From TPA_inf: Saccharomyces (taxonomy: Eukaryota), in the NCBI GenBank assembly GCA_000146045.2, contig BK006939.2, positions 320,001 through 384,000 of the forward strand: 64,000 nucleotides of DNA, written 5' to 3'. Below the pieces are notes generated by a model, which had not been told where the DNA came from, ran no database searches, and was given only the letters and a program-made list of their open reading frames with translations. Of the stretch, positions 1,847-64,000 are shown in pieces. A program made the translations under genes and the position numbers. The stretch's first letter is position 1. Each line of letters begins with the position of its first letter.

Positions 1847-2125
1847 TCTATACTAAAAATGAAATATTTTTTTGTTTTCTTTACCTCATTCAACTGTATA
1901 GAACGTTATAACAAAATAATCAAGTTAAAACCCTTTTTTGTACACAATGGAATCTCTTCCATTTACTAATCAACTTAACAATGCTGGATTGGATATATTG
2001 ATAACGTTTTAAAAAGCGTTGCGTGATGTTTGGGTGCAATTGGCGGAAAAGCGGAACTTTCAAATTTACGATAGGTGGAGATACATCTCCACCTTTCTCC
2101 CCATTATCTTTGAATTTTCCTCAAA

Positions 2126-2133
2126 TATATAAA
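2126..2133 (+). promoter_or_regulatory. TATATAAA, candidate TATA box for the SRG1 ncRNA transcribed across the SER3 promoter
   Basis: Lies about 560 bp upstream of the SER3 ATG, consistent with the known SRG1-SER3 tandem arrangement. Confidence 0.4.
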
Positions 2134-2212
2134 GAGAACAACAAATCCATAGAAATGCCATTGTTTAATCCTGATTATCTACATTGTTTTAGTTTTTTAC
2201 TCACAATCGAGT

Positions 2213-2763
2213 AATGCCTTTGTTTGGCCAAGCTATGTGCAAATATCACAAATTAAAAATTTGGTTAAGCAGTTAGGCTGGACCTAATATTTTAGAAAAA
2301 CCTAATTTTTTTTGTGGACCCATTTTCGATATTTACTCACAAATGGAATTCAAGGGGAACAACTTCGGTCTCAGCACTTTAATTATTCTTCTCGTTCCCA
2401 CCTAATTTCGCAATTTATTGTCCTTGACTTCTACCACGAGAAAAAAATTAAGAAAATGCAACGCTGCCCGTGCAGGGTTTTCTGAGCGGGATGAAAAAAT
2501 CAGACAAATATCCAAGTTATGAGTAATTACTTTGTTGGAAGGAGGGAGCAGAGGATAAGGAAATTCTTAAAACTGTTATGTATATAAAGGAAGAACCATT
2601 TCTAGTTATTTCACTTTTTGATACTTGTCAACTATCTTAGTAAAAATACAGAACTCTATAAAGAACCACAGAAAAATCGACAGCAATGACAAGCATTGAC
2701 ATTAACAACTTACAAAATACCTTTCAACAAGCTATGAATATGAGCGGCTCCCCAGGCGCTGTT
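2213..2763 (+). ncRNA. SRG1: SRG1, the regulatory ncRNA whose transcription through the SER3 promoter represses SER3. Boundaries are approximate.
   Basis: The position relative to SER3 and the upstream TATA match the published SRG1 locus. No ORF lies in the interval except a 63-aa spurious one. Confidence 0.45.
2581..2588 (+). promoter_or_regulatory. TATATAAA, the SER3 core promoter TATA about 100 bp upstream of the ATG
   Basis: Sequence motif tatataaagg at 2581. Confidence 0.5.
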
Positions 2764-4095
2764 TGTACTTCACCTACGCAATCTTTCATGAATACCGTTC
2801 CACAGCGCTTGAATGCTGTAAAGCACCCAAAAATTTTGAAGCCTTTCTCAACGGGTGATATGAAGATTTTACTATTAGAAAACGTTAATCAAACTGCTAT
2901 TACAATCTTCGAAGAGCAAGGTTACCAAGTCGAATTCTATAAATCTTCATTGCCCGAGGAAGAGTTGATCGAAAAGATCAAGGACGTTCATGCTATTGGT
3001 ATCAGATCAAAGACTAGATTAACTTCAAATGTCTTACAACATGCGAAGAATCTGGTTTGTATTGGTTGTTTCTGTATCGGTACCAACCAAGTTGACTTAG
3101 ACTACGCTACCAGCAGAGGTATTGCTGTTTTCAACTCGCCTTTCTCCAACTCAAGATCAGTAGCAGAATTGGTCATCGCTGAAATCATTAGTTTAGCAAG
3201 ACAACTAGGTGATAGATCTATCGAATTACATACCGGTACATGGAATAAGGTTGCTGCTAGATGTTGGGAGGTAAGAGGAAAAACTCTTGGTATTATTGGG
3301 TACGGTCACATTGGTTCCCAATTATCAGTTCTTGCAGAAGCTATGGGTTTGCATGTGTTGTACTACGATATTGTAACTATCATGGCCTTGGGTACTGCCA
3401 GACAAGTTTCTACATTAGATGAATTGTTGAATAAATCTGATTTTGTGACACTACATGTACCAGCTACTCCTGAAACTGAAAAAATGTTATCTGCCCCACA
3501 ATTTGCTGCTATGAAGGATGGCGCTTATGTTATTAATGCTTCAAGAGGTACTGTCGTGGACATTCCATCTTTGATCCAAGCCGTGAAAGCCAACAAAATT
3601 GCAGGTGCTGCTTTGGATGTTTATCCACATGAACCAGCTAAGAACGGTGAAGGTTCATTTAACGATGAGCTAAATAGCTGGACTTCTGAATTAGTTTCAT
3701 TACCAAATATCATCTTGACACCACACATTGGTGGCTCTACCGAAGAAGCCCAAAGCTCAATCGGTATTGAAGTGGCTACCGCATTGTCCAAATACATCAA
3801 TGAAGGTAACTCTGTCGGTTCAGTCAACTTCCCAGAAGTGGCATTGAAATCATTGTCTTACGACCAAGAGAACACTGTGCGTGTGTTATACATTCACCAA
3901 AATGTACCAGGTGTTTTGAAGACCGTCAATGATATTTTATCGAACCATAACATCGAAAAGCAATTTTCCGATTCAAATGGTGAAATTGCTTATTTAATGG
4001 CTGATATCTCTTCTGTTGACCAAAGCGATATTAAAGATATTTATGAACAACTAAATCAAACCTCTGCTAAGATCTCAATTAGATTGCTATATTAA
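2686..4095 (+). CDS. SER3: D-3-phosphoglycerate dehydrogenase, 469 aa
   Basis: Full-length ORF with an NAD-binding GxGxxG motif (GIIGYGHIG) and a 2-hydroxyacid dehydrogenase catalytic domain. The neighbouring genes place it as SER3 rather than its paralogue SER33. Confidence 0.93.
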   Translation: MTSIDINNLQNTFQQAMNMSGSPGAVCTSPTQSFMNTVPQRLNAVKHPKILKPFSTGDMKILLLENVNQTAITIFEEQGYQVEFYKSSLPEEELIEKIKDVHAIGIRSKTRLTSNVLQHAKNLVCIGCFCIGTNQVDLDYATSRGIAVFNSPFSNSRSVAELVIAEIISLARQLGDRSIELHTGTWNKVAARCWEVRGKTLGIIGYGHIGSQLSVLAEAMGLHVLYYDIVTIMALGTARQVSTLDELLNKSDFVTLHVPATPETEKMLSAPQFAAMKDGAYVINASRGTVVDIPSLIQAVKANKIAGAALDVYPHEPAKNGEGSFNDELNSWTSELVSLPNIILTPHIGGSTEEAQSSIGIEVATALSKYINEGNSVGSVNFPEVALKSLSYDQENTVRVLYIHQNVPGVLKTVNDILSNHNIEKQFSDSNGEIAYLMADISSVDQSDIKDIYEQLNQTSAKISIRLLY

Positions 4096-34933: not shown

Positions 34934-35005
34934 TCCGATATAGTGTAACGGCTATCACATCACGCTTTCACCGTGGAGACCGGGGTTCGACTCCCCGTAT
35001 CGGAG
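34934..35005 (+). tRNA. tE(UUC): tRNA-Glu (UUC), 72 nt, no intron
   Basis: TCCGATATAGTGTAACGGCTATCACATCACGCTTTCACCGTGGAGACCGGGGTTCGACTCCCCGTATCGGAG shows a cloverleaf with anticodon TTC and A/B-box promoter elements. Confidence 0.95.
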
Positions 35006-44588: not shown

Positions 44589-46517
44589 ATGTCAAAAGCT
44601 GTTGGTATTGATTTAGGTACAACCTATTCATGTGTTGCTCATTTTGCAAACGATAGGGTTGAAATTATCGCTAACGATCAAGGTAATAGAACGACGCCTT
44701 CTTATGTGGCTTTTACTGACACAGAAAGGCTAATTGGTGACGCTGCGAAGAATCAAGCTGCGATGAACCCACATAATACAGTATTCGATGCTAAGCGTCT
44801 GATCGGACGTAAATTCGATGATCCAGAAGTGACGAACGATGCTAAGCATTACCCATTCAAAGTGATTGACAAGGGAGGTAAACCGGTAGTGCAAGTGGAA
44901 TATAAAGGCGAGACAAAGACATTTACTCCAGAAGAAATTTCCTCAATGATCTTGACAAAGATGAAGGAGACTGCTGAGAACTTTTTAGGAACAGAAGTGA
45001 AAGATGCTGTAGTAACGGTTCCAGCCTATTTCAACGATTCACAAAGGCAAGCAACAAAAGATGCCGGTACAATCGCGGGCTTGAACGTTCTTCGTATCAT
45101 TAATGAACCTACAGCTGCCGCTATTGCGTATGGGCTGGACAAGAAATCGCAGAAGGAGCACAACGTCTTGATCTTTGATTTAGGTGGTGGTACTTTTGAT
45201 GTCTCTCTGCTATCCATAGATGAAGGTGTCTTTGAGGTTAAGGCTACTGCTGGTGACACTCACTTGGGTGGTGAAGATTTCGATAGTAGGCTGGTTAACT
45301 TTCTAGCCGAGGAGTTCAAAAGAAAAAATAAAAAGGATCTAACAACTAACCAAAGGTCCCTAAGGAGGTTAAGGACCGCCGCTGAAAGGGCCAAGAGAAC
45401 TCTGTCTTCGTCTGCTCAGACATCTATAGAAATAGATTCATTATTTGAGGGTATCGATTTCTATACTTCCATTACAAGGGCAAGATTTGAAGAATTATGT
45501 GCTGATTTGTTTAGATCTACATTGGAGCCAGTGGAAAAAGTTTTGGCTGATTCAAAATTAGATAAGTCACAAATTGATGAAATTGTACTTGTTGGTGGTT
45601 CAACAAGAATTCCAAAAGTACAAAAACTGGTTTCTGATTTTTTCAATGGTAAAGAACCAAACCGTTCGATTAACCCTGATGAGGCCGTCGCTTATGGTGC
45701 TGCCGTACAGGCTGCCATCTTAACGGGTGACCAGTCGTCGACGACCCAAGATTTACTGTTGCTGGATGTTGCACCATTATCTCTAGGTATTGAAACTGCA
45801 GGTGGTATTATGACAAAGTTGATCCCAAGAAATTCGACTATCCCAACAAAAAAATCGGAAGTGTTTTCCACCTACGCTGACAACCAACCTGGTGTGTTGA
45901 TACAAGTTTTTGAGGGTGAAAGGACAAGGACAAAAGACAACAATCTACTGGGTAAATTTGAGTTGAGCGGTATTCCACCCGCTCCAAGAGGCGTACCACA
46001 AATTGAAGTTACATTTGATATCGATGCAAATGGTATTCTGAACGTATCTGCCGTTGAAAAAGGTACTGGTAAATCTAACAAGATTACAATTACTAACGAT
46101 AAGGGAAGATTATCGAAGGAAGATATCGATAAAATGGTTGCTGAGGCAGAAAAGTTCAAGGCCGAAGATGAACAAGAAGCTCAACGTGTTCAAGCTAAGA
46201 ATCAGCTAGAATCGTACGCGTTTACTTTGAAAAATTCTGTGAGCGAAAATAACTTCAAGGAGAAGGTGGGTGAAGAGGATGCCAGGAAATTGGAAGCCGC
46301 CGCCCAAGATGCTATAAATTGGTTAGATGCTTCGCAAGCGGCCTCCACCGAGGAATACAAGGAAAGGCAAAAGGAACTAGAAGGTGTTGCAAACCCCATT
46401 ATGAGTAAATTTTACGGAGCTGCAGGTGGTGCCCCAGGAGCAGGCCCAGTTCCGGGTGCTGGAGCAGGCCCCACTGGAGCACCAGACAACGGCCCAACGG
46501 TTGAAGAGGTTGATTAG
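44589..46517 (+). CDS. SSA4: Cytosolic Hsp70 of the SSA subfamily, 642 aa. It is heat-inducible.
   Basis: Full Hsp70 ATPase and substrate-binding domains with a C-terminal GGAP-rich tail and EEVD. SSA4 rather than SSA1 to SSA3 is assigned from tail sequence and position. Confidence 0.88.
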
Positions 46518-46801
46518 ATAAATACAAAGATGCGATGAAGTAGCAGCATCGAATTTCTTAGTTTTCCCTCTTAACAACTTTTTATAAGTATATATATAAG
46601 ATACACAATCAGTAATTAGCAAATGACTACTATTTGTACGTTCTCATCGTCATAAGCCAGAGTTTAATTAAGTGCCTCAACCGGGATGCGATTTCGCGTT
46701 CATATACAAAGCCGAAATGACAATAAGAAAGTCATCGCCAAACAACACGACTAATTGACCATTAAAAGGAACAAAATACAGTCAAAGAGTTTAGCTCGGA
46801 A

Positions 46802-47428
46802 ATGTACAGCAATCATAATTTAAATTCGGATGACTGTTGCTTCGATTGGAATGAAGAGAAGGCCGCAGAACTACAGCGTACAGGTGTTTCTTTTGACCGG
46901 AGTTTAACACCTCAATCTTTAAGAACATCTACACGTAGACTATCAGAAGAGAACAAACAACAAAGTGGCACTATGCACATTGACACTTCCCCTTCTGTGG
47001 TTTCAGATATAATATCAAGTAGACGAGATCGTTCACAGGATTTTTTTGGGCCTCATTCTTCATCCCCTATTGCCCCTTCAGAACGACAACGAGCGGATCA
47101 GAGATCACGGTTGGAGTCCATGAGATTAACTAGACGTCGAGACAAAATGACCAAAGTACGCGGTGGCCTAGAAAAGATGGAAGAAATGATCATGCAAGGT
47201 GAACACCTTAGAGAAATGCAAAGGCTAAAGCAGGAAGCACAAAAGAACGCTCTACCCTCTGACATGGCTGAATATATGGAATGGCAAAACAACGAGGATT
47301 TGGAAGACGATGAGTTGCTTGCCTTTATTGAAAAACAGGAAACTTATAAAAATGAATTAGAACACTTTTTGAACAATGCTAATAAAAATGTTTATGAGAA
47401 CAACTCGTATCCGAACTCTCATACGTGA
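46802..47428 (+). CDS. RTT105: RTT105, a regulator of Ty1 transposition and RPA chaperone, 208 aa
   Basis: 208-aa ORF in the expected position. It has low complexity and is assigned mainly by synteny. Confidence 0.75.
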   Translation: MYSNHNLNSDDCCFDWNEEKAAELQRTGVSFDRSLTPQSLRTSTRRLSEENKQQSGTMHIDTSPSVVSDIISSRRDRSQDFFGPHSSSPIAPSERQRADQRSRLESMRLTRRRDKMTKVRGGLEKMEEMIMQGEHLREMQRLKQEAQKNALPSDMAEYMEWQNNEDLEDDELLAFIEKQETYKNELEHFLNNANKNVYENNSYPNSHT

Positions 47429-47837
47429 TGGCATCATTGCTATTACAGAAATAGCCCTAGCCTGTCATATTTAACTGAGCTGTTGAGTATGGGCATCTTT
47501 CCGCATGCGCTAACTACGGAGCTGGCTCTTCCCCTTCTATTAATCCTTCTGGCAGGAAGCGAAAGCGACTGATGTCGTTTCTACGTTTCTATGTATATTC
47601 TATCGCGTTTAAGTGTGTATATTTTGAGCTGCTCAAGTGAAGGGAACGTATTCAGAATAACTAGATTCTCTGCCATACGATCAACTAACTGTTTACCATA
47701 TACAGTCTCAGTTCGCTACGGTTAGCGTACCGTAAAACAGCAGTTTACATTCACTATATAAAGGATGACGTAAGAATTTGCCTACGTATTAAAGAAAACT
47801 TCACAATCAAACTGCTAAAATATACAAATAATTCCGT

Positions 47838-50800
47838 TCATTTCAGGCCATGATGACGATCCTTCACATAATCTTGAACGGGATCGGTATTCGGATCATA
47901 TTTCTCCAATTTTTTGATTTGTTCTGGCGCAATTGAACCGCGTAAATCTGAATCACTTTGGTACCAATCTTTGATCAACCATACCATTTCTTTTTTTGCC
48001 AATTCGACATTTCCTTCAGAGTTTTCTATGATACGACTTAGAATGTAATAGAGTTTTAAATGAGAAACTCCGGCAAGCAAGAACATTGAACATACAGATC
48101 CATCAGCAGCTGAACTTTTATCAATGAATGATTCTAATATTTTATTCATTAAGAAATGTACAGGGAAAACAACGTCCGTATCGCGTGTTGTTTTACCAAT
48201 TCGAATTAGTGTGTTGGATATCGAGGAAAGAAAGGATTCTTGGCCTACACTTCCCACGTCAGGCGATGGAGCATTTTTCATGCTATCGAGCAATCGATTC
48301 CACTCTCCTTGAATGACTTTTTCATCTTTGAATTGAGATACTTTGAAAATTCTTAGTTTTATTTCGTAGTAATCTAATGGGTCTGCACAATCATTAAAGA
48401 GATCTGATAATGGGAGCACCCTTCCATTTAGTTTAAGTGTTAGTTGCTTTCTATAATCTTCGTCAATCCTTGTTTCATTCCTTACCAAATTAAGTAGGTC
48501 ATCCTGAATGGAAGCTATGTCGAAAAGTTCGTGGATGTTCTCAGATAACTGGACCAGTGCCGGCTTTTGGTCGAATGACGTTGAGCTATCACAAAGACCG
48601 TTTGCTCTTGCTAGGCATTCGATTCTTTCACTTAATTTTAAGTCAAAATCAGAACTAGCTAGAGCATATAAAACATCAGCTGCTTCAAGAAAATGTTCTT
48701 CTTTGAATAAGTAGAACCACAACAGATTACTAATTTCTAGAGATTTTTCTGCTCTTTCTTTCAAGTACGGCAAAACAAATTGAGAATCCAAACGTAATAA
48801 GTAGTCTTGTCTTTTATTTGCGACAAGCCAATCATAAAAGCAATAATGGAAGAACCTGTTATTGCTATTCATTATCACTGAGTAAACTCTTTTCTTCAGT
48901 GACGAAGCTGGTGAAAAAATAGATATATTTGCAATTGAAGGGGATTGTTCGATAGATGTATAGTCATCCACGCTTTTGACAATCTCAAAAATCAAAGTGT
49001 ACACATTTATGCGTTTGTCATAAAAAACTTTTCTTGGATCGGCAGTATTACAACCTCTAGACACATACTCTTGTGCTTGGTTTCCTTTATCAATTTTATC
49101 TGCAAATCTAAGTAGAAATCCAACAGTCTTAGGCTGGTAATTAAGTTTTACCATGATATCCACCACACGTCTCAATTCACATAATTCTATATTCTCGGCA
49201 CACCTTTCATAAAGGTCAATTGCGGTATCTAAATGGTTCCTTGATATTTTAGAATCTATCATTTCAAACTTCTGTGCTGCTTCTAAATGCTCTCCTGCCC
49301 TGTAACACAAAATGTCTGCACTATGACAAAAAGATCCAAAGCGTTCCTTTAAAACGTTCACAATATAATCTGCCGATGTGCCGCTTGCAATATTAGCGTT
49401 TACAACTTCTATTAAAATCTCTTTTATTAATTGTTTGGTTTTTGCGTTAGGGGTAAACAAATCATGGAACTTAAGATCAAAAAAATACTCACGTGTCTTG
49501 GAGTCATAAACTCCCCCTGCACCCATCAATGTATTTAGCAAAGATTTGAAAGCATCAATATCTTCGTAGAAGACATTTATAAGGGAAAGCGCATCCTTAA
49601 TAGAATTTATTAAGAGGATAAGAGCATTCATAGCAATAGACTCAGCATCGGATGCAGTTATAGCATTGCTACCTTTCGGAGGCACAAATGAAACGAAGGA
49701 AGGACGGTGGATGTTGAAGAAATCTGCCAAAACAGATATCGATGATAAATAATACTCAACCTGTGGCCTAGTTATAGAAATACCAAAAGCATCCATTTTT
49801 TCCGTTTTGGAAGCCCTTTTAAAAACAAAGACCCTCTCTTCCCATATTTGGCTAAATAATCTTGTAATTAATAACGCAGAACCATAAAACCTGGGAGATA
49901 GTACTATACCATCACATTCACCAGATTTATCGAATAAATTTTGTGAGATTGGCGGCACGCTGCCACTTTCTCTAGAACTTTTCGGTTTTATTTCAACTAC
50001 CCCAGGTATACCGGCAGAGAAGAAGGCCAGGGCACTTGATTTAATATGCTCTGACTTATTAAACTTACAAGCTAAATAAAGTGCCGTAGAGCAAGCCTCA
50101 GATAAACCATAACTGTGAATAAATGGCAAAGGATTTTCAATCAAGCTTTCGAACACTTCGTCGGGCGTGCGATAGCAATAAATTTCTAAGGCATTGCTTG
50201 TTAAAACGGCAACTTTTAATGGTTCTGCACTGTATTGTGAGGCAAACACATTGGCGTAACCTTGGGGAGTAGAAGTGTAATTAAAAGATCTTGTTAAGGG
50301 AACAATCTCTTTAATTTCATCTGTCGTATCGAGTAGTGCGGTATTCTCTACATATTTACCATAATTCTTTAATATACCGTAATCTGGAGCACTAACGTAA
50401 AGTTTGTGTTCCTCTTTATTTTCCAGCAAAGCTTTATTTGTAATACCTTTAGATAGTTCTCCGGAATTAGCTCTTTTCCTCACGCACGTAAAGTATATAC
50501 CTGGTGATATTATCGTACTAGCGCAAGTGGTATTGATATAAGTTGAACTAGCTTTTTGTGTTGAAAGTGGGCCTGTATCATGTGTGTTTAAGGGGTGATG
50601 ACCGATTATGAAAGATTTATTTTGCTCGAGGGAGCTAGATATACTGGTAGGAGGAAACTTTACAGAGTCTAATTTTAATGAGCCAATCGATCTCCTAGAA
50701 ATGGAACCTTTGAAATACAAGCGTACCCCAGTAGTAGTTATAACAGCTAAGAATAAATCATTGTTCTCACACATAGAGATAGAAACAATTTTGGCAATCT

Positions 50801-52013
50801 TGAAAGCTCGATTACTGAGTAGAGGTGAATTTTTTACACCCAATGCATTCATTCCACGCCTGATATGAGCAGCATCAATGAGGACCGGTCCTACTAGCCC
50901 GTTACTAGTAATTAGGTAAGATCTGACAATAGATTTCGTTGATAGAGTATGTAAAACGCCTCTTGACTGGTCAACTTCGAGCTGTGATATAGTTTCTTCT
51001 TCGGTACCTGCATCCCCTTCTAGTACTTTTTGTATCAACTTTCCTCCGGGTATGCTAGGTATTAGTTTTGTAGGTAGTAAATTTGCTAAGTTTGACTTTG
51101 TCAAACATATTTTGTTACTCTTGCTATTGAATAGGTTCTCCGAGCAGTTATATTGTAATTCCCACACGTTGACACCATCAGTCGCACCAGTGAAAAATAT
51201 TTGTCCAGTCCTTTCGTAGCTTATTATGTTAGAAACGTTGAACCCAGTTACATTTACTTTTAATCCTGTGTTAAAGATATTCAACTCATGAGTACGGTCA
51301 TTAAATGATATTGTCAAAATATAGATATCAAAAAGAGTGGCGACAATCAATAAATTTTCAACAGAAGAAACAAAAGTGTTTGGGCTAGGCTTAACTAGTT
51401 TCACTTTTAAAATGGTGTGCTCGATTTCATCGATACAGTGGTATTCTGAACTATTATTGATATTCCACAAGATCAATTTATTATCAGAGGTTATCCAACA
51501 ATAGTTCAGTTCGAGAAAAATACCCATATCACTCTTTATTTCGGTATTTGAAACTTGTGATAAAACTTCATCTGGTATATTTGTCACTTGTTGTCTTTGG
51601 AAGGGGGTAAATGCACCTAATCCACCGACTTCATCTGAGAAATTATAATCCAAACCTTTACTATAATAGTCTGGATTATCTAGTATTGGCGTATTTCTGT
51701 CCCTAAAGCTCAAATCCTGGACAAATTCACTAGCCAACTGCAACGGTTCAGAGGAAGTCAACCCGCTTATCTTGACGTGTGTAGTTACGTCACGAAGTTC
51801 TGATTCAATAGTATTTCCAGCCTCGCCATACTTGTTTAATACATCTTTCCTGGTTTTTCTTTCGCTTAGGAAGGAACGGCTCGACAGGTTGGGCTTACCG
51901 TTGTTTTGGTCATCTCTTGGCCGATTCCTTAAGCGATTTCCTCCTAAGGAAGCCGAAGCCGTAAACGTTTCGCGATCGTAATCAATCCTCTTTTTTAGTG
52001 GAGTTGAATACAT
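47838..52013 (-). CDS. NUP157: Nucleoporin Nup157 of the Nup155/Nup170 inner-ring family, 1391 aa
   Basis: Large beta-propeller plus alpha-solenoid ORF. The start is MYSTPLKKR, the second Met of the ORF-track ORF. Confidence 0.88.
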
Positions 52014-52325
52014 CACAATTGAAATCCGAGCTGTAGTTTTTGTGAAATGTTTCTCCTACAAACAGATTTTATTCTTAATTTCTTCTATTGATTTATAAAG
52101 CCATTCAAAATTCAGATGGAAATTATTCATTAGAAATCTTTCCTCTCCAAAGTCGGGTAATACTTTCTATTTTGTGTCACTAATTTTATAATACTTTAAT
52201 CAGCAAATACTATAATAATAGAATAATCTCCAGACGTTCATGGAAAGTTCAACAATGGAAACATAGCCATATTTATTTACTAGCAAAAGCATTTTCAGAG
52301 AATTTTTTTGTTTCCTGAAAAAAAA

Positions 52326-53234
52326 ATGAGGGAAAAAAGAACAATTTCAAATAAAGACACAAACTATCTCAAATTCCCAAATAAACTCCAAAGATATTCC
52401 CGATTCTTGAGCAGGAAGATATCCAATACCAGCCCAGAAAAGCAACCGAAGAAGAACATAAAAGAACACTGTTTATCGAGTTATCATAAAGAACACTCGG
52501 TAAAACCAAAGCAAAACTCCGGTAATGTTGCAGCAAAAGAAGACAAAGATACGCAGCATTTACAAAATAATGTCGCTAATGAAGAAGCAACGGAATGTCT
52601 AACAAGAAGTAATTTGAAAAAGTTACAAGAGAAAATTTTCGATAGAGAACTTAATGATATTGCCTGTGATCATTGTCTTTGTAGCACAGAAAATAGAAGA
52701 GATATCAAGTATTCACGACTTTGGTTCCTTTTTGAGTTGGAAATGAGTGAAAACTGGAATGAAAATCTCCGCCTTAGTTGCTATAATAAATATGTGTATT
52801 CCGCAATTGATGAGTCGTGGAAAATGGAGAATATTCTACTTAAAGAACAAGAGAAGCATTATGAATATTTTCCAATAGGACAATTACTGATACCCAATAA
52901 TATTGACTACACTAATAAACAGAAAAGGAAGGAAAACATTGAAGACTTAACAATTGAAATTGATAGTATTATAGAGACAAACCATCAAAAGAAAAGATTT
53001 TTGCCGCAAAGTGTCCTGATAAAAAGGGAGGATGAAATTGCATTTGACGACTTTCATTTGGATGCACGAAAGGTTCTAAACGATTTGAGCGCCACTTCTG
53101 AAAATCCATTCAGCTCTTCACCAAATACAAAAAAAATTAAATCAAAGGGAAAAACCTTGGAAGTGGTTCCCAAAAAGAAAAACAAAAAGATCATAGGTGC
53201 TTTGGAAAGAAAGCTACATATAGATGAAAATTAA
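52326..53234 (+). CDS. MAM1: Monopolin subunit expressed in meiosis I, 302 aa
   Basis: 302-aa product starting MREKRTISNKD. A candidate MSE-like TTTTGTG lies about 290 bp upstream. Confidence 0.75.
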   Translation: MREKRTISNKDTNYLKFPNKLQRYSRFLSRKISNTSPEKQPKKNIKEHCLSSYHKEHSVKPKQNSGNVAAKEDKDTQHLQNNVANEEATECLTRSNLKKLQEKIFDRELNDIACDHCLCSTENRRDIKYSRLWFLFELEMSENWNENLRLSCYNKYVYSAIDESWKMENILLKEQEKHYEYFPIGQLLIPNNIDYTNKQKRKENIEDLTIEIDSIIETNHQKKRFLPQSVLIKREDEIAFDDFHLDARKVLNDLSATSENPFSSSPNTKKIKSKGKTLEVVPKKKNKKIIGALERKLHIDEN

Positions 53235-53447
53235 TGAAAGTATTGTCTGCACATTACCACCGGTTAAAACGGCGACTCAGTGTAACCTGTAAAACTTTTT
53301 ATCAATTTTGAATAGGTATAGAGAGATTTTCCTATTCTCTCCAAAAGAACCTGTATCATTAAAAAATATATATCTTTTACATATTGCAAATATAAAAAAT
53401 TACAAAAGTAATGTGGTTGCGCACGGAAGCTATCCGAAGAACGAATT

Positions 53448-54545
53448 TCACCTTTTCTTTTTCTCTTTAACCTCTTCATCAGTTGTGGCATGTAGCCTAA
53501 TGACGTTTGGATAGTCGGGTCTGTTGCCCATATGGCCTTGATGCCAATCATAACTTAGAGCGTACGCAAATACGCTACCATTCCTATTGAAGCTGCATAC
53601 AGGAATAGATGCTTGCAAAGTAGGATAGCCTTTCAATCTATGCCTTTGATTCTTATCCCAAAAATTGAAGGTACCATCACCACCAGCCGTAACAAAAGTA
53701 CCATATAATGGATGAAATGCAATGCTATTTACAGGATACACTAGAGATTGACCATTGGAGCCAGGTGCCCTATTAGGATTGGTTTGACGATGGCATTTAA
53801 ATGAAAAGCCTGATTTTTTCTGCATACCATCATCGATATACCTTATGGAGCATCTACCTTCCACTGAACCAATCGCATATCCATCGGCTTCATTATAACA
53901 TGCCACGCATCGAGTTTGCCATTTTAAAGGTGACGTGGTTGCCTTAAAAATCGTTGTTGGGTTTGCTAGATTGATAATAGCGATATGTCTTTCGGCAGTA
54001 GCCACTACTAACAGAGACTGTTTATTATCCATCGAATATACTCTTTCAGGCATCATTACGGTGGATACGGGCTGGGGTTGTCTCATATCCCAATATTTTA
54101 TGGTTTTATCCCAGGATCCGGTTACTATACACTCTGTGTTCGATGGTCCACATTGTACAAAACGTAATACTTTTATTGGCGCAGAATGCATTCCAATTTG
54201 CTGTGTTTGACCACTGGCAATATCGTACAATTTCAGGGCATTATCACACCCGCCTGAGGCTACTTTTGTACCATCATTCGACCATCTGGTACATAATACA
54301 GGGCTGGAGCTTTCATGCTGCGCTCTACCTTGAGGTACACCATTTTGGACATCCCAAATACGTACCTTACCGTCCCAGGAACTGGCACTAAACATGAAAT
54401 CTTGTTGCGGTGAAAACGCAATATCCGATATTGAGTCCTCTGCTGGGCTATTAATGACAATATCATTGGCCAAATCCTTTTCATTCGCCATTGCAGTACT
54501 CGTTCCCAAAGCTGAGGTTGTATTTGATCGATTAAAAAAAGACAT
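53448..54545 (-). CDS. GLE2: GLE2, an mRNA export factor with WD40 repeats (Rae1 orthologue), 365 aa
   Basis: WD repeats throughout, with the N-terminus [14 protein letters not shown]. Confidence 0.92.
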
Positions 54546-55214
54546 AGTTCCCCACTTTTCCTCTTCTTACGTATTTCTTTATTTTATTGTAATATGCAGA
54601 TTAAGGTTTATGATATTTGATCAAGGTGGATGTGCCGGAATGATTGGTATGGTAAGCTTGCCCAATTCTTATAAGTCAGTCTCTGTTCAAGTAAAATGGT
54701 TATATAGTGCTTAACCGGAACAAACCTTTAGCAATTGCGATCAACTAAGATATCTTATTGTAAACCCTACCGTCATCATATGAAATATCAATCTTAGAAA
54801 TCTTAGAGAGCAATGCAAAAAAAAAAAAGAGACGAGACGGTCATCGTAAATCATGATCATAGTAATGTCAAAAGTTAATTTACCATTATGCCAAGCTACT
54901 TCAATGAGTGTACATCAACCAGAAAAGTGCCTGTATTTAATGGTTCAAATGTTCTTTTTATAAGTACAATATCTTATCTAAAAATTAAACACTTCTATCT
55001 TATCATGGAAGAAAAACAAAGCTATCACAAAACAAATATCCTAAAAAACCGTTTATAAAAAGTCGTTGCTGTGAAAATGGTTCAGTTCACAGGGCTTAAA
55101 CCCATCCCCAAATTTAGCGAAATGTCAGATACGTAACTCCATTCTCCTAGCTTTTTATTATGTTTCCTGTCATTAAGAGTTTTTATTTTTTATTATAATA
55201 CTCAACACGTGACT

Positions 55215-57614
55215 TCAGCCTTCCCAATTAATAAAATTGAAATCATTTTCATTTGTATCCAGTAAATTGAGATCGTAATCCGGTCCTTGGTCTTCAACCA
55301 TACCAATATTCCCAAACTTCAAGTTCTGAGAGTGTACATTCTGATTTTCATTAGTACTGGTTTGCTGAGGACCCAAAGTTGTACCCACATTGGATGAGGG
55401 CTGAATTAATGTGTTATCATTATCGCCACTATTTGTAGATGCAGAGGTTTCATCAGCAACATTTGAATTCTCGTTTGGTGTTCTATTGTTAGAAGCATAA
55501 GCTTGATTAGGAAACAACAAAGAACTTGAATTTTTGAGGGCGTCAAAATCATATCCTTGATTATTACTACTCGGCTTTTTTTCCTCTGGAGTAGATAATG
55601 TGTTACGATTGCCTTTACTACTTCTTGAATCATTGCCTACTTGCGCCTCCAGTATGTTTCCCCCATTCGGCAATTCTTGGGATACTGTATTATTCTGTGA
55701 AGTGATTATTTTAGAGTTCTTTAAAGTAATATTCAAATTGGTGGTTGAAAACCCATGTGGCGGCTTTATAACCACGTTTCCTGGTACCTTAGAACTTCTT
55801 TGCTTCTGAGCGTCACCAGACCGAGGTGTTGCTATGCTTAATGGGGATGATGCCGAAACTTTTGAGTTTACTGCTCGCTTGGGTCCATTCTTTCCGGCAA
55901 TCTTGCCACTTTCTGGATCGAAGCAACTCTCTGTCACTGAAGATAATGGACTGGATACAGCCGGCTTGTTGAAACTTCCCAAATTTATACCTGGAAAAGG
56001 GAGAGAATTCGCAGTTTTAGTGGGCGGAGCGGAATGAATATTCGGAGCAATAGTATTCGAGAATGTTCTTAACATATTATTCTCATCCTTAGTGGCATCA
56101 GCATTCAGAATAACAGAAGGAGTGGATTTCCTCCTCGACACTCTAGTGTTAGGGGGACTGCGCTTTTTACCTGTCACCACGCTGTTGCCACCGAGTTTAT
56201 TCGTAGACTCTACTGGAAAAGCTGAGGTGGATGCCTTTTTTGTATTTTTCCTTACCTTTGTGGGCTGTTTAGAAGCTAAAGCGGAAGGTGATGCTCCATC
56301 CAACGATGGGCTAGATTTGGAATTAGAATAAATATCTTCCTCGCCAAATATTATTGCTTGATTGCGGAAGTTAGTAGCAATATCTGATCTTGGAGTCTTA
56401 TTTACTCTTGAACCTACCATAGCGGGTTCACTTGTTGTTGAGCCTGGTGTGGTAATATTTGGCGAACAAGCGTTCGTCGATCCCGCGGAAACTGTAGCGG
56501 TATTATTTTTTCTTCGTCTCTTAGCCACTAGACCGGCTTTAACTTTACCCTTCGCTTTTGAGGTTGCAGATCTACTTCTTGTAGATTTTGACGTCGGGAC
56601 ATTATTTGGTTTATCTGTTGAATGCATAGTTTTTAAACTTTTAGGTTGGTTCACTGGAGATTTGTTATTAGTTGTATTATTTGTGGTATTATTGTTACAC
56701 GGGTTTCCCACTGGATTTTCCGTAGTGGGTTGCATTGGATAATTATAGACTGGCCAGCCAGTAACGTTTTGACTCCGATTCTGGGTTGGCCCTACATTTG
56801 TAAAATCGCCGGAAGGCGGCGCTGTGGGAGCAACAGCAGTTGCACCAGTCGTGGGGTTTGCATTATTGTATGGTGGAATGGAAAAATTATTAACGATAGG
56901 GTTACCAACCATAGGAATTGGTATAGGGTTCATATTAACATTGCGCATTTGAACCGCAGGTGCCATAGGATTTCCTAGCATCATAGCAGCCAAGTGCATG
57001 GGGTCTATGTCCTCGTTACTATATTCCCCTCTTCGTTCTGCATCGTGTTGTAGCCTTGCCGCATGAACAGCCAAGCTTCTATATATTTGTTCCTGCCTTT
57101 GTTCTTGAAGAACTAGTTGATAATATTGCTGAGCGAACTCTGAGCCACCTCTGGAAGAACTGGTATTAAAGATGTCCCAGAATATTTGCTACCATTCATA
57201 CAAAAAGCCTTGAGGTGTATCTACTACCTTCGAGAACGTATTCTGGTTACCATTGTTTTCTTTAGATTTGGGTCCGTCGACTGGGTTTTGGCCTTTGTCT
57301 CTATCTAGGTGCGCATCTTGAGCAAAGGCTGCTGCAGTGTTTTTCAAAGACGACTTCGTAAGAAAGTCAAATATGTACTCATTGAGCGTATTCTTGCAGT
57401 TCATTTTTTCCTTCAAATCCGAATTTTCCGCCGTAGGTTGATTTATCCACTGCTGTTGCTGCTGTTGCTGCTGCTGCTGTTGTTGTCGCTGCTGTTCACT
57501 ATTCGTTGCCATTGCAATATTACTCTGCAAATCTTGTTTATACTGGCTTGCCATGTACGGTTGTTCCGTGGGAGGAATTGAATCTGGATACGAACTATTC
57601 ACTTTATAACTCAT
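55215..57614 (-). pseudogene. FLO8: FLO8, a LisH-domain transcription factor, interrupted by one in-frame TAG at 57189..57191. This is the flo8-1 type allele; the uninterrupted reading frame would encode 799 aa.
   Basis: Two same-frame ORFs (57189..57614 of 141 aa, and 55215..57074) are separated only by a TAG. The N-terminal LisH region and poly-Gln are in the upstream piece. Total length equals the intact gene. Confidence 0.9.
57450..57494 (-). repeat. Imperfect CAG/CAA trinucleotide repeat encoding about 15 Gln in FLO8
   Basis: ctgctgttgctgctgttgctgctgctgctgttgttg on the plus strand. Confidence 0.8.
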
Positions 57615-58761
57615 TCTACCACGGAATGCGTTTCCTCTTTATTTATGTCTATAAACGTCTTCGTGTTTATTTTTTATAGCCTCAGTGACTTACTAACGTC
57701 AACTCACCGTGTCTTCGGCAAACAAAATGGTATCAAAGCAAATGCGCTTGAACAGGAGTAAAAAATGGTCACTTTTTCAATCTGTATTCTATGAATTTTA
57801 TCAGTACCGGTCTCAAACCAACCCTCTACAACTTCATCGTGATCCCATTCTTTCTTCGTTGTCTTCCCACGCTCTTCCGGACCCTCGTAAAAGAGTCCGA
57901 AGCCGAGAAGGCGCGATTTCATGCACTATACACTCGTTGGCAAACACAACAATGGACCCTGGCCAGTTGAACTGTGGTCCCTGTTGCGTCCACTATTGAT
58001 ATGCATGCATGTGGACGCAAGCACACGCCTGCATAAACGTTTAATTCCTCAGTATCCCACTCCCAGGGCTACTTATTCGAGGCATTTTCTATTTTTGTTA
58101 CTACTAGAGCCAGCATTAGAACTGGAAATACAGCAAAAAATTTTTCACATTCTTATCACAAGAATGTGCAGGAGAAGGTAAAACCTGCAGGTAACTTGCA
58201 TATATTTCAGTAAATTACATGTACTATACATCGTCAAATAATTTACATTTGTACAAGACCAATATCCGGGGCCCGCTAATTAGTAACGTGCCGTGATTCT
58301 TTCATTAGAACAAGTACAAGATGACCTGAACTTGCGCGTATTCATATGGAAAATACGCAAGGCCCGGTTATTTCCGTTCTGGGATATTCGCCGAAAGCTG
58401 CCTTCTGTTCGAATTGCGTCGTCAACATCCTTTTGAGCTTTCTTTAAGTTCTTTCCTTCGAGATGGACGATGCCAAGAGAATCATCGCTGAGTTGATCGG
58501 CGGCGTGTAGATGCGCCGATCAACTTTACAGGACGAAACTCACATAACCTTAATACAATAAAAAAGTATTGCATACAATAGGTCCCTCAGGACACATACA
58601 TACAAGATTGGCAAAAGTGAAGGCAGGTGCCTAAGATTGGGTGGGAAAGTAAATTTACATATAGTTTTTTCTAGGAAAAAAATAAAAATAATGAAGGAAG
58701 GTATACTTATATAAGCGCTGTTTATCGAAACAGACGAGAATAAAAAATGGTTTTAAAAAAA

Positions 58762-61700
58762 TCAAGCAATGACGGCAGCTAAAACCGGATTTTGAGCAAC
58801 AATTCCGTTGTAAGTAGTGTTTAGATACTTCAATAATTCAATAACCTTATGCTTCATCTCTTCGGTTTGGAATTGCTTTAATCTTTCCATATTCTCTTCC
58901 CTACCTAGAGTAGACTCCTTTTCTAACTTAATTCTATCATTTTCTTTGGTAAACACAGCACTGAAAATCTCGATGATCCTTGGGGTTTCGTTTGTGATAA
59001 CGGGACTATTTTCCTGGTATAGTTTCATGATCAATTCGAAAATTGGATTGTATTCTTCAAAACCGGTGTTTAGTGGTAAATGTGCCAATAATGCTGGAAC
59101 AGTTTGTTCCAATGGAACTAGAGCACTGTTCTTCAAAGCCATTCTGGCCACACATCCACTAGCATTAGCGTATGCTCTATCAATAATCTCTCTGGTGGCT
59201 TCGTCATCTTCGGCTGCTAAGGCCTTTTGGTCAGCAGCACTTAGTAACTCATAAAGCGCCTTCAAAACAGGTTCATAAACGGCTGAGATGTCCATAGAAG
59301 CATATTCACACAACAAACCAACACCATAAGCCGCGTTACCTCTAACTTCTAAAGATTTATCGCTTGTTAATCTAATGACTAAGGCTTCTAGCATTTCATG
59401 AACGAAAGGATTTTGTTCTTTCATACCTAGAGCTAATTCAGAGGCGGCACCGACGGCGGATGATCTCTTATTCTTGGATTTAGATTGGAATAATCCGAAA
59501 ACAACCGGTCTGAAGTTGTCAAAGACTTTGGCAAAATCACCAGCTAAAGCTTGAGATAAACTGACAAGAACTTCCAATGCAACATCTTGTAAAGTTGCTT
59601 CGGTTTCAGAAGCGTCTAATTCTTCATCTCTTGGAACGTCCTCCTCGATATCAATGGTTTGACAAGTATGGGTACCCTTCAAGACACTAAGAACTTGCAT
59701 GCACAAAGCTTCTAGCATAGAAGAGTCGCCGTTGTCCATGATGATGATTGCGCCAAATTGCTTAATCATATTGGCAAAATCTTCCATAACGGTAATGACC
59801 ATTGAGGTTTCGAATTCATCGCTTAAGTTACCCATGGAAGTTTCCCTGGCAGCTTGAATAACCGCCAAAACATCAGCATTAACGTAGGAAGAGGCTGGGA
59901 TACCCTTAGGATAGCTTTCTGGTTCTACTTTGGAAGCCAACAGGACAGACTTAACAACATTCCAGATGGTGTTTAGAGCGGTTTCTCTTAAACCGTACGA
60001 CTCATCGACTTGTTCATTCAAAACCTTTAAGGATTGTTCGACGTATGGCAAGAAATGCTCCTTCGTACCCAATGCTAATTCGGATAGAGCTGCAGAAGCA
60101 ACTTCCTTTTCATAGGAAATACCAGTGTTAACGGTGAATTTGTTCTGTAGTTCTTCTTCATTGGCAGAATCAGCAAATGCGGCTAAATCCTCTGCATCAC
60201 CATCGAAGTTGAATTGGTATTCATCTAATTCTAGTGTCTTGAAGATTTCTGGTAGGATAGTTTTCAAGAAAGGAGCAAAATTTTCGCCGTAAACTTTAGC
60301 CAAGTTTGCAATGAATGCATAACCAGATTCTCTTAATCTAGCAGAATCAGTTTTGATGGCCTCATAGGCGGAGTTAACCAAAGGTTCGGCAAATTCGGCA
60401 AATGCGTCTGATCTGACGGCTCTGGCCATAGTAGAAATATTTTCAAAAGTGTTGGCCCTTAGTTCTATATCATCTTCGCTCATACCTTCAATTTGAGAAC
60501 AGTTTTGGATGAATTTTTCCAAATAGTGAACACTAGTCTTGAAATATGGAATGAACGCGGAACCTGCTGCAAAAGCAGCGGAACCAATTGCAGAAACAAC
60601 AGCACATCTCAACTTGGATGATTCATTACTTTCCAACATATAGAATAGTTTGTTCATTAATGGATCCAAGTACTTAGCGATAGCATCATAAGCAATGAAC
60701 TCAAGCAGACCATCTAAAGCAACAGTTGCATAGTTGTAAATGACAATGTTTTTCGCAGAATCAATGATATCGATGATCAATGGCAAGTATTCTTCATGAA
60801 ATTTGGCAACTTCGTCTTGTAAGTCAGTGGTTAATTGGTGAATACACTTCAGAGCAGCTAATTTAACAATCGGTTCAGTATCCTTCAAACCGTTTATGGT
60901 GGCAGGGATAATTTTGTCGAATTGAGACAAAATGTAGTCTGGAGAACCAGTAACAGCAACGGAAATAGCTAAAAGAATAGCTCTTCTCTCAAAAACGTTT
61001 GCGGATTGCAACATAGCTGGAATGTGTTCAACAATAACGGAAGCAACCTGGGATGGTGGCAGTTCAGAGGAAGCGAAAGCTAACAGTCTAATAGCAGAAG
61101 AAGAGGGTGTATTTTCCTCATTTTCGCCTGTTTCGTCTTCGTTGTTTAATTCATCGTCAACATCGATCTCTTCACAAGCCACCTTCAAAGCTGCAACAGT
61201 AATTTCTGGGCCCAATTTGCTTTGAGAAACCTTCGATTTTCTGTAGGACAATGAAGATATGATGAATTGAAGAGCAAAAACTCGAACATCTTCGTCAATC
61301 TCACTGTTAACAGCAATTTGTAAAGACAGCTTAATCAAATCCACAATAAAGTTTCCTGTTAATTGGGAGTCCAATAGCAGGAAATCGTTTAAACAGTTAA
61401 AGATTAATTTAGCGTTCATGGTGTCGTCGGCCTTGATAACTGCGTCTAAAACGTTAACCACAGATGGAATTGAGGCGGCGAATTTTTGAGCTTGAACAGG
61501 GTTGATGGTTTCTTGTTCTTCAATCAAAGCAGAAACGTGGTTCAAAGCCTGGGCAGATAATGATCTGATCTCCAAAGAAGATGGATCATTAATTGTCTGA
61601 GAGAACAAAGCCAAAAAGTCATCGATGTGGCCAGATAGAGAAGAGGTGAAATCTTCCAACAGAGAAAACAAAATAAAAATGGCAGTTTGTCTTGTTTGAA

Positions 61701-62103
61701 CGTCTTCACCAGAAGCAGTTTGGATTAGGTTAGGGACTAAATCTGGCCATTTGTTACCATCTAGCTCTTCAGTACCAATAGAAGCAATTACTCGAGCGTT
61801 GGAATGACGAACATTTTCTTTTGGCTCACTAAATGCTGTTTGTAAAAGAGATGTTTTGATGGAGGCTCTAGTGGATTCATCAATGGCGTTCCAGTGCTTG
61901 GAAACCAACTTTCTAGCTTCAACACCAGCTAGTTGTTTCAACGAATCATCGGAGCCGTTCTGCAAAATATGAATCAAAGCTGGCAAAGTTGTAGGCTGGG
62001 TATAAAATTGAGTTTGCAAAGTTTTTGTAGCCTCCTTCAAGCCTACACCAGAAGTGATAGCGTGCAAAGTTTGCTCAAGTTGACTTAGAAATTGTTGATC
62101 CAT
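58762..62103 (-). CDS. KAP123: Karyopherin/importin-beta family nuclear import receptor, 1113 aa
   Basis: Recognised full-length protein [19 protein letters not shown]... with HEAT repeats. Confidence 0.93.
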
Positions 62104-62298
62104 TATACTACTTGATACTAAAAAAGTGTTTTTCGTCCCTCAGTTTTTATGCTGCTAAGGCAGGATTTTGGTAATATACAGAAACGAGAAGAAGGATCCT
62201 TGCGGGGTCTTGCCTATTCTTTTTTGTTGACTAATAAAATCAATACCAAACCTGACAACAAATAAAATGAAGGATCTATGGATAAGTGGATGTTTCTA

Positions 62299-62340
62299 TT
62301 TTTTTTTTTTTTTTTTTTTTTTTCGACCTCATCTCATCGC
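62299..62340. promoter_or_regulatory. KAP123 promoter: a T25 homopolymer (62299..62323) followed by a PAC motif CTCATCGC (62333..62340)
   Basis: Exact PAC octamer. The long poly(dA:dT) tract is a typical nucleosome-excluding element, and KAP123 is a ribosome-biogenesis regulon member. Confidence 0.5.
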
Positions 62341-62594
62341 GCTTTCCATTCATCATATTGTACGAAAACAAAGCACAATCGTAATAAAAGACATCCTGAT
62401 AATTAGCAAAGGGCTAACCATAATAGTCTAAGTTTAGTAGTTCAAATGTTTGTTGACATGCACTTGAAGCAACTCAAGCGCAATGAGAAAAGTGACTATA
62501 CAAATATGTAAAAAATTGCTACCAAAAAAAAAAAAAAAAAATTTAAAAACTCTGATAATATAGTAAAAATTATTGGTACATTGTGAATTAAAAT

Positions 62595-64000
62595 TTATGC
62601 GTTTGCCCTCAAATCCTTTTCTATATCGTCCAATTTTGAGTCAATGTTCTCAATTGTGATACCAATCAAGTTTCTGTATTTATCTAACTTCACCGATGAA
62701 TTAATTTTGCTTTTAGCTTCGCTTATTTTCAATGTTGTCATCCTTCTTTTAAACTGTAGAATAGTTAGTTCCGTTGCTAGTCTCAACGTCTCATTTACAT
62801 CATATGATTCTTGTACAGTATTAGAAAATTTGGCGTCCGCTTTGGTGTTTTTAGGAGAAGAAGTTTCCGACGTTGACTTTGGAATTGGCTCTTCATCTTC
62901 CTGTTTTTCTGGATGTGAACTTGAGTTAGTATTCATATCAACCTTTGATTCCTCATCCTGGACAATTGTAGCCAGTTTTAAAGCTTGAGATTTTTCCAAG
63001 CTTTGAATAAAATTTTGCTTTTCAGAATTCAACTTTGACGATGTTTCTTTAATCCTTGATTGTAAATCTGATATCGAATTTATGGGAGTTTTGTTTGATA
63101 CGGAATCGAAAGCATCCTCTATTTGATGTGCTATTGTAATCAATCTCTTCTTATTGTTAGAAATAGAGGATTCGGTTTCTACTACTTCGTTGTCCAGATT
63201 TTTAATTTCTTCACCCATTATTCTTTGTAGAGAAGAAACTTTTGTATTTAATTTGTTGATCTGCTGCGAAAGCGGTTTTGAGTACTTTCCTAGTGGAGAC
63301 ATCTGTATCGGCAGAAGGGAAGAAGGCGATTCCAATGATGGCATGGCAGTTTTCACACTATTCAAGGGATCCTTTTTCTTTTCAACTTGATTCTCATTAT
63401 CCTTTGCCTTTTCTTTTTCATCTGATATTGACTGTGATCTTCTTCTGTATAAAATGGGAGAGTTTTCAAGAATTTTGGACGGCGTAGACTTTATATCTTT
63501 AATGACAGACGACGTCACGAAAGAATTAATATTCGACAAGTCTTCCATAATAGTGTTCATATTTGTAGAATTTGGCTGGTTGGAATGCAGGTATTGACTT
63601 TCGTTGACTTCAGAATCTGTTTTAGCTATATTGACATCTGCAGTAGAATCTTCTTTATCAGGATGTTGAGTTTTTATAATTTTTGGAATTTTGACATTGT
63701 TTTGTGGTTGCTGTTGCTGTTGCTGTTGTTGGTAATAATTCTTTTGAGGAAGGTTTCGAGCTAACTTTCGATCTGCCTTGGTGTTGTTGTTTCTGCTGTT
63801 TGACCCGCCAGCCGGAGTATTAAACTTATTCATTATTGACGCAGGCGATTCGTTATCTAGATTCAATATATCTGTTGACGCACCAAGATATACCAGTCTG
63901 TTGTAAACCTCGAAGTTCAAGTTTAAAGCAGATAAATGCAGTGGAGTGTTCCCTATATTATCTTGGTAGTTCAAACATATCTTCAACAAATTGTAGTCCT
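62595..64000 (-). CDS. SWI4: SWI4, the SBF DNA-binding subunit. Only the C-terminal portion with ankyrin repeats and a coiled-coil is present; the N-terminus lies beyond the window end.
   Basis: The 464-aa ORF runs open to the window edge. It has an ankyrin repeat (GNTPLHLSALN) and a poly-Gln tract encoded at about 63705..63735. Confidence 0.88.
   Translation of the reverse strand, partial: DYNLLKICLNYQDNIGNTPLHLSALNLNFEVYNRLVYLGASTDILNLDNESPASIMNKFNTPAGGSNSRNNNTKADRKLARNLPQKNYYQQQQQQQQPQNNVKIPKIIKTQHPDKEDSTADVNIAKTDSEVNESQYLHSNQPNSTNMNTIMEDLSNINSFVTSSVIKDIKSTPSKILENSPILYRRRSQSISDEKEKAKDNENQVEKKKDPLNSVKTAMPSLESPSSLLPIQMSPLGKYSKPLSQQINKLNTKVSSLQRIMGEEIKNLDNEVVETESSISNNKKRLITIAHQIEDAFDSVSNKTPINSISDLQSRIKETSSKLNSEKQNFIQSLEKSQALKLATIVQDEESKVDMNTNSSSHPEKQEDEEPIPKSTSETSSPKNTKADAKFSNTVQESYDVNETLRLATELTILQFKRRMTTLKISEAKSKINSSVKLDKYRNLIGITIENIDSKLDDIEKDLRANA

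Follow-up and report, generated by a model that had tools for sequence, protein, structure and literature searches.

Two open reading frames (ORFs) follow each other on the minus strand of a 64,000-nucleotide stretch of Saccharomyces DNA (GenBank assembly GCA_000146045.2, contig BK006939.2, positions 320,001 to 384,000; here called the window), and the locus raises the question of whether they are two genes or the two parts of one, FLO8, and of what it is that separates them. Position numbers are those of the whole 64-kb stretch, and the gene is read from the minus strand. An earlier note on this DNA, made from the letters alone, had described the pair as FLO8 split by a single amber codon. 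We are close to certain that the allele in the window is flo8-1 of Saccharomyces cerevisiae FLO8 (YER109C). A single G>A transition at nucleotide (nt) +425 (57190) has turned TGG into TAG (W142*), and the S288C-type haplotype around it is otherwise intact. The observation is already known, flo8-1 being a textbook allele.

Whether the two ORFs belong together is first of all a matter of frame. The minus strand of 55215..57614 is one frame of 2400 nt, or 800 codons. Checked codon by codon, it has two in-frame stops and no more, TAG at codon 142 (57191..57189) and TGA at its end (55217..55215). The ORFs given in the program-made list, one of 141 amino acids (aa; 57189..57614) and one of 619 aa (55215..57074), have this frame in common, and TAG is the sole internal stop between them, as the earlier note had claimed. 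It had also named a frameshift, an insertion or a difference of frame as what would speak against it; reading 55215..57614 codon by codon revealed no frameshift, no intervening sequence between the 141-aa and 619-aa ORFs and no difference in frame. The remaining two minus-strand frames contain 39 and 78 stops across the same interval. Given the base composition of FLO8, 799 codons would contain one stop or none with a probability of about 8e-21, and every one of 20,000 shuffles had at least 25 stops, so the frame is open beyond chance. The two ORFs are therefore one disabled gene, and the downstream ORF is no gene of its own. The parts of the frame are as follows.

55215..57614, minus strand: the FLO8 (YER109C) frame, 799 codon positions plus the terminal TGA, broken only at codon 142 (basis: codon check, collinear homologues and synteny).
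57189..57191, minus strand: the amber TAG at codon 142, the flo8-1 or W142* lesion; the causal base is 57190 (nt +425), A on the gene strand and G in intact alleles.
57192..57614, minus strand: judging by the ORF list and the frame, the only stretch that should still be translated, giving an N-terminal fragment of 141 aa that includes the poly-Gln tract and the LisH-like helices.
55215..57188, minus strand: codons 143-799 and the stop, an intact coding sequence now untranslated and no independent gene; it is collinear with full-length orthologues and has no second disabling change relative to the TGG haplotype.
57072..57074, minus strand: TTG (Leu181), the reported start of the 619-aa ORF, an artefact of the ORF track (codon check).
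56997..56999, minus strand: the first real ATG past the amber (Met206), start of the 594-aa models in several public assemblies (codon check, protein clusters).

The start of the downstream ORF calls for a correction. A first Met had been placed 38 codons past the stop; the position is right (57074..57072), but the codon is TTG, and the first ATG is codon 206 (56999..56997), 64 codons downstream of the amber. The ORF track was made with bacterial table 11 and prints TTG as M, although it encodes Leu in yeast.

What stands at codon 142 elsewhere was read from two sets of sequences: 14 intact S. cerevisiae loci (L001-L011, L027, L030 and L031), and 16 contigs carrying TAG (L012-L023, L025, L026, L028 and L029) that were retrieved through the 141-aa, 619-aa and 594-aa products from Logan, ENA and NCBI sources. 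Every one of the 14 intact loci has TGG, the codon that had been predicted for intact strains. They include L001, a metagenome-derived S. cerevisiae contig with G at nt +425 where the window has A, and ten chromosome-scale loci (L002-L011); the identity of L001-L011 to the window is 98.97-99.75%. The TAG contigs match the window at 99.9-100%, and one of them (L028) has the same base at 18,786 of 18,786 positions. Among the assemblies reading TAG is GCA_947370585.1. The most informative comparison is with a TGG haplotype, L024/L027 (GCA_947370305.1): across 7,785 bp it and the window disagree at 57190 and nowhere else. The allele is therefore explained by a single base change, without a second lesion or decay of the downstream part. 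Over the 18.8 kb of window 45215..64000, L027 shows six substitutions and two indels (99.94% identity). Its haplotype could be that of a close relative or progenitor type of the laboratory lineage, or that of a FLO8-repaired derivative. More generally, intact FLO8 alleles from wild, industrial and further laboratory strains (among them CEN.PK113-7D and the YJM, Peterhof and ScRAP assemblies) resemble the window in DNA identity (98.97-99.94%), length (791-802 aa) and synteny, but differ from it in having TGG at codon 142, another poly-Gln length and a few substitutions.

A single-base difference is also the typical form of a sequencing or assembly error, and the fact that the nearest intact haplotype departs from the window only at 57190 would suit a gene that is truly intact and was misread at one base. 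However, the 16 TAG contigs were assembled independently from different runs and assemblies (Logan, ENA, NCBI), and a single one of them was seen in at least 20 samples. In addition, a stop at residue 142 has been published independently for S288C-derived strains (PMC4859572; PMC9534892). The number of independent contigs bearing TAG rules out an assembly error; the sequencing-error reading was rejected on the same ground, and we give it next to no probability. In the collection, 60 indexed blocks contain the 619-aa product. A look-up of the 141-aa product returned only two short contigs, which are uninformative on strain.

The TAG codon is thus a real feature of the allele, and its agreement with flo8-1 can be followed through the literature. 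In S288c, a nonsense mutation is present in FLO8, which is a key activator of the FLO genes (PMC2780560). Flo8 variants 142Stop and 142Trp correlate with clumping, and one genotype is listed as 'S1 (isogenic to S288C) ... flo8-1' (PMC4859572). YPH499 is flo8 W142* (PMC9534892), and 74-D694 and G600 have the S288C FLO8 stop too (PMC3240633). The Saccharomyces Genome Database merges two non-functional ORFs into one gene, FLO8/YER109C (PMC3962479). Compared with flo8-1 as described by the papers that cite its first report (Liu, Styles and Fink, 1996, Genetics 144:967, as cited in PMC2780560, PMC4859572 and PMC9534892), the window has the same gene, the same codon 142, the same Trp-to-stop change and the same neighbourhood; no difference from that cited description was detected, and the window haplotype is identical to other TAG contigs of laboratory strains. 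The features of flo8-1 that can be examined in sequence were all found: the locus, the codon, the base change, a sole disabling lesion and the laboratory haplotype. Among these tests of locus, codon, base change, other lesions and haplotype, no result contradicted the flo8-1 explanation. The published W142* variants and the single-base difference in 7,785 bp bear out the earlier recognition of the laboratory nonsense allele. Its further claim, that the assembly comes from an S288C-like background, is supported by the TAG contigs, which are 99.9-100% identical to the window, with the qualification that YPH499, 74-D694 and G600 carry the allele as well. What the allele identifies is the laboratory lineage related to S288C and not that one strain.

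Two considerations limit this assignment without contradicting it. One is that we infer the identity to S288C itself from TAG contigs identical to the window at 100% and from exact protein matches, which makes it a probable identity drawn from sequence. The other is that the 3' context of the stop, CAAATA, fits a readthrough motif, so the amber may leak.

The gene itself was identified with the read-through protein, in which position 142 was entered as X for the search. Nine homologues were found at 67-98% identity, some of them named Flo8p. The closest is a 798-aa S. cerevisiae protein (98% identity). Six are 758-810 aa long, with three carrying names: S. arboricola (Flo8p), S. uvarum and S. 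eubayanus ('FLO8-like'). Two more distant proteins of Nakaseomyces type (P0008 and P0009), one of them from Nakaseomyces bracarensis, carry the LisH domain PF08513. The Saccharomyces homologues of 758-810 aa are collinear with the window frame across the amber position, and the 90% protein cluster includes members named Flo8p, for example that of CEN.PK113-7D. The 799-aa sequence with Trp restored had no exact match in the protein collection searched.

The neighbourhood agrees with the FLO8 locus. GLE2 (53448..54545) and KAP123 (58762..62103) were identified by exact protein match (entries Kap123p and GLE2 [S. cerevisiae S288C]), and the neighbours MAM1 and NUP157 by domain. The gene order KAP123 - FLO8 - GLE2 - MAM1 - NUP157 is common to 10 complete S. 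cerevisiae chromosomes. The gene sizes in the window fit those of the chromosome V genes YER081W (SER3) through YER111C (SWI4), and the positions agree with S288C chrV:320001..384000, where FLO8/YER109C occupies 375215..377614. The sole tRNA gene that ARAGORN reports in the 64-kb window is a tRNA-Glu (anticodon TTC) at 34934..35005 on the plus strand.

What the amber would remove depends on where it falls in the protein, and three features of the N-terminal region are needed to see this.

57450..57485, minus strand: CAR repeat encoding the poly-Gln tract (CAR run at +130..+165).
57312..57386, minus strand: LisH-like motif, residues 77-101 (Pfam PF08513, E=6.8e-4).
56976..57227, minus strand: most conserved block, residues 130-213, the second half of a LUFS-type domain, which contains the amber (V130-L213 invariant columns; structure-sequence alignment).

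The CAR run agrees with the poly-Gln tract already recorded for this frame. Its length differs among strains, with 3 nt deleted in L001, and the proteins of the cluster are 791-802 aa long. The short-read Logan contigs with the TAG allele all end inside the run (57480-57485). The LisH label is less straightforward. The frame does have the length of the proposed 799-aa LisH transcription factor, and PF08513 is present in P0008 and P0009, but the match of residues 77-101 in the window reaches 19.9 bits, just below the curated cut-off of 21.6 bits.

Conservation around codon 142 is high. In the protein alignment Trp occupies position 142 in 9 of 9 homologues, from S. cerevisiae to Nakaseomyces, and it sits within the invariant block GFLYEWWQIFWDIF; the stretch from V130 to L213 is the longest invariant block of the protein. 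Flo8 residues 131-155 can be aligned with the segment 'GFLHSWWCVFWDLY' in four SSBP2/SSDP structures, 8HIB, 6TYD, 6S9R and 6IWV (E=0.0017-0.004), the SSBP2/SSDP segment opposite the WW-motif region of Flo8 being 'PPGFLHSWWCVFWDLY'. W142 is the second Trp of this aligned motif, and the amber replaces exactly that residue. Proteins with a LUFS domain (LUG/LUH, Flo8 and SSDP/SSBP) have in common a LisH-like helix pair followed by GFL(H/Y)xWWxxFWD(L/I); in Flo8 the segment GFLxxWWxxFWD is present after the LisH motif and is invariant among the Flo8 homologues. Unlike SSBP, Flo8 has about 30 extra residues separating the LisH part from the WW motif, as well as a long C-terminal region rich in Asn, Ser and Thr that has no counterpart there. 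The alignment (E about 2e-3) weakly suggests that the N-terminal region of Flo8 may resemble the LUFS domain of SSBP2/SSDP.

On this layout, translation of the flo8-1 message would end after 141 residues. The product would retain the poly-Gln tract and the LisH-like helices, and would lack the latter half of the conserved LisH/LUFS-type domain (the WWxxFWD helix and the rest of the invariant block) together with the remaining 657 residues; the half-domain would be lost because the amber falls within GFLYEW/WQIFWDIF. The mRNA would probably be a target of nonsense-mediated decay. According to the literature, FLO1 and FLO11 depend on Flo8 as the activator that turns them on, and cells lacking it show no flocculation, adhesion, agar invasion or pseudohyphae. 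In published work FLO1/FLO11 expression, adhesion and filamentation were regained only upon restoration of FLO8 (PMC2780560).

The extent to which the stop is absolute turns on the nucleotides around it. In the gene strand the native context reads ...TATGAATGG TAG CAAATATTC..., with one element of particular relevance.

57183..57188, minus strand: the hexamer CAAATA directly 3' of the amber, which fits the yeast readthrough consensus CA(A/G)N(U/C/G)A.

This consensus promotes readthrough in yeast, and the stop of IXR1 is followed by the same hexamer, CAAATA, with an IXR1-TAG reporter giving 25% readthrough (PMC4150775). The main residue inserted at UAG is Tyr (92%), with Gln or Lys otherwise, and Tyr is aromatic like Trp. 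Conceivably, then, the flo8-1 amber is leaky through CAAATA, yielding some full-length Flo8, so that the allele would be hypomorphic or suppressible (by [PSI+], loss of upf1, or stress) instead of null. Several observations speak against such leakage. Clumping does not differ between isogenic strains that carry [PSI+] or another suppressor and those that do not (PMC4859572), and the measurements of Namy et al., in the form in which that paper cites them, indicate almost no bypass of flo8. Readthrough of UAG does not insert Trp, yet W142 is invariant in all the homologues. The 5' context is unlike that of IXR1, with UGG in place of GAA before the stop; S288C has the phenotype of a flo8-deficient strain, which added FLO8 rescues (PMC2780560); and the amber is conserved in no relative. 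A conditionally leaky flo8-1, in which impaired termination or loss of nonsense-mediated decay gives some full-length Flo8 with mostly Tyr142, is accordingly a proposal that the evidence counts against, and we consider it improbable. A mild discrepancy is seen between the strong-looking CAAATA context and the near-absent bypass of flo8, the latter as cited.

Leakage of this kind should be kept apart from programmed readthrough. Like the readthrough genes IXR1, SFB2 and TIP41, flo8-1 has, right after its stop, a hexamer matching CA(A/G)N(U/C/G)A. Unlike theirs, its stop arose recently by mutation and occurs in no relative, and the bypass cited for it is almost nil. Programmed readthrough was rejected as a class, the in-frame stop being conserved in 0 of 9 homologues and 0 of 14 intact loci.

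If flo8-1 is a plain nonsense allele, the 3' part of the gene may still be asked whether it has a life of its own, either through translation that restarts at Met206 or through a promoter within the gene, as an independent functional protein. Public assemblies do annotate a 594-aa product starting at Met206. The same 594-aa models are found, however, on TGG alleles whose 799-codon ORF is uninterrupted. This is the only annotation on the intact FLO8 of L027 (GCA_947370305.1, 10001-11785), L030 (GCA_030036275.1) and L031 (GCA_947369955.1), the coordinates in the last two being 1501-3285; in all three the models correspond to window 55215..56999. Five more 594-aa sequences beyond these belong to the same protein cluster, and one record names the product 'CBK_G0015800'; the ScRAP supplement lists CBK as a haploid isolate taken from an insect in Germany, with a SUP7 ochre-suppressor tRNA mutation. 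In homologues of 797-810 aa (S. arboricola, S. uvarum, S. eubayanus and P0002), collinearity extends through the position of the stop. Moreover, yeast would not be expected to reinitiate 64 codons past an ORF of 141 codons, which counts against an independent downstream protein.

As for an internal promoter, FLO8 is known to contain a cryptic one with a TATA element at +1,626 to +1,631 (PMC2581627). The window has the same element.

55984..55989, minus strand: TATAAA, the cryptic intragenic TATA element of FLO8 (+1626..+1631, an exact match to the published offset).

The coincidence of the published offset, +1626, with TATAAA in the window supports the identification of the gene as FLO8. Yet the cryptic promoter is normally repressed in the wild type and becomes active in spt6 mutants, and the first ATG past the cryptic start site is out of frame (PMC2581627). 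FLO8-HIS3 reporters of spt6/spt16 chromatin defects make use of this element. An independent downstream protein is thus very improbable, though slightly less so than a misread base. The independent downstream gene was rejected as a candidate, the 594-aa models sitting on intact alleles too; the statement that the downstream ORF should not be annotated as a gene of its own agrees with this and with the collinear homologues. The 594-aa models are truncated annotations that were apparently propagated from the S288C reference.

For the locus as a whole, the flo8-1 reading has consequences at several levels. The two ORFs of the window belong under one disabled-gene annotation. In at least three public assemblies FLO8 is intact but only its 594-aa tail is annotated, which could mislead pangenome or presence/absence analyses of this phenotype-determining gene. 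The value of the finding lies in annotation and in strain identification, not in discovery. Were the amber leaky after all, adhesion and filamentation of S288C-derived strains would be partly tunable by translation fidelity. As a nonsense allele, flo8-1 places the sequence in the S288C-related laboratory lineage and explains the absence of flocculation, adhesion and filaments.

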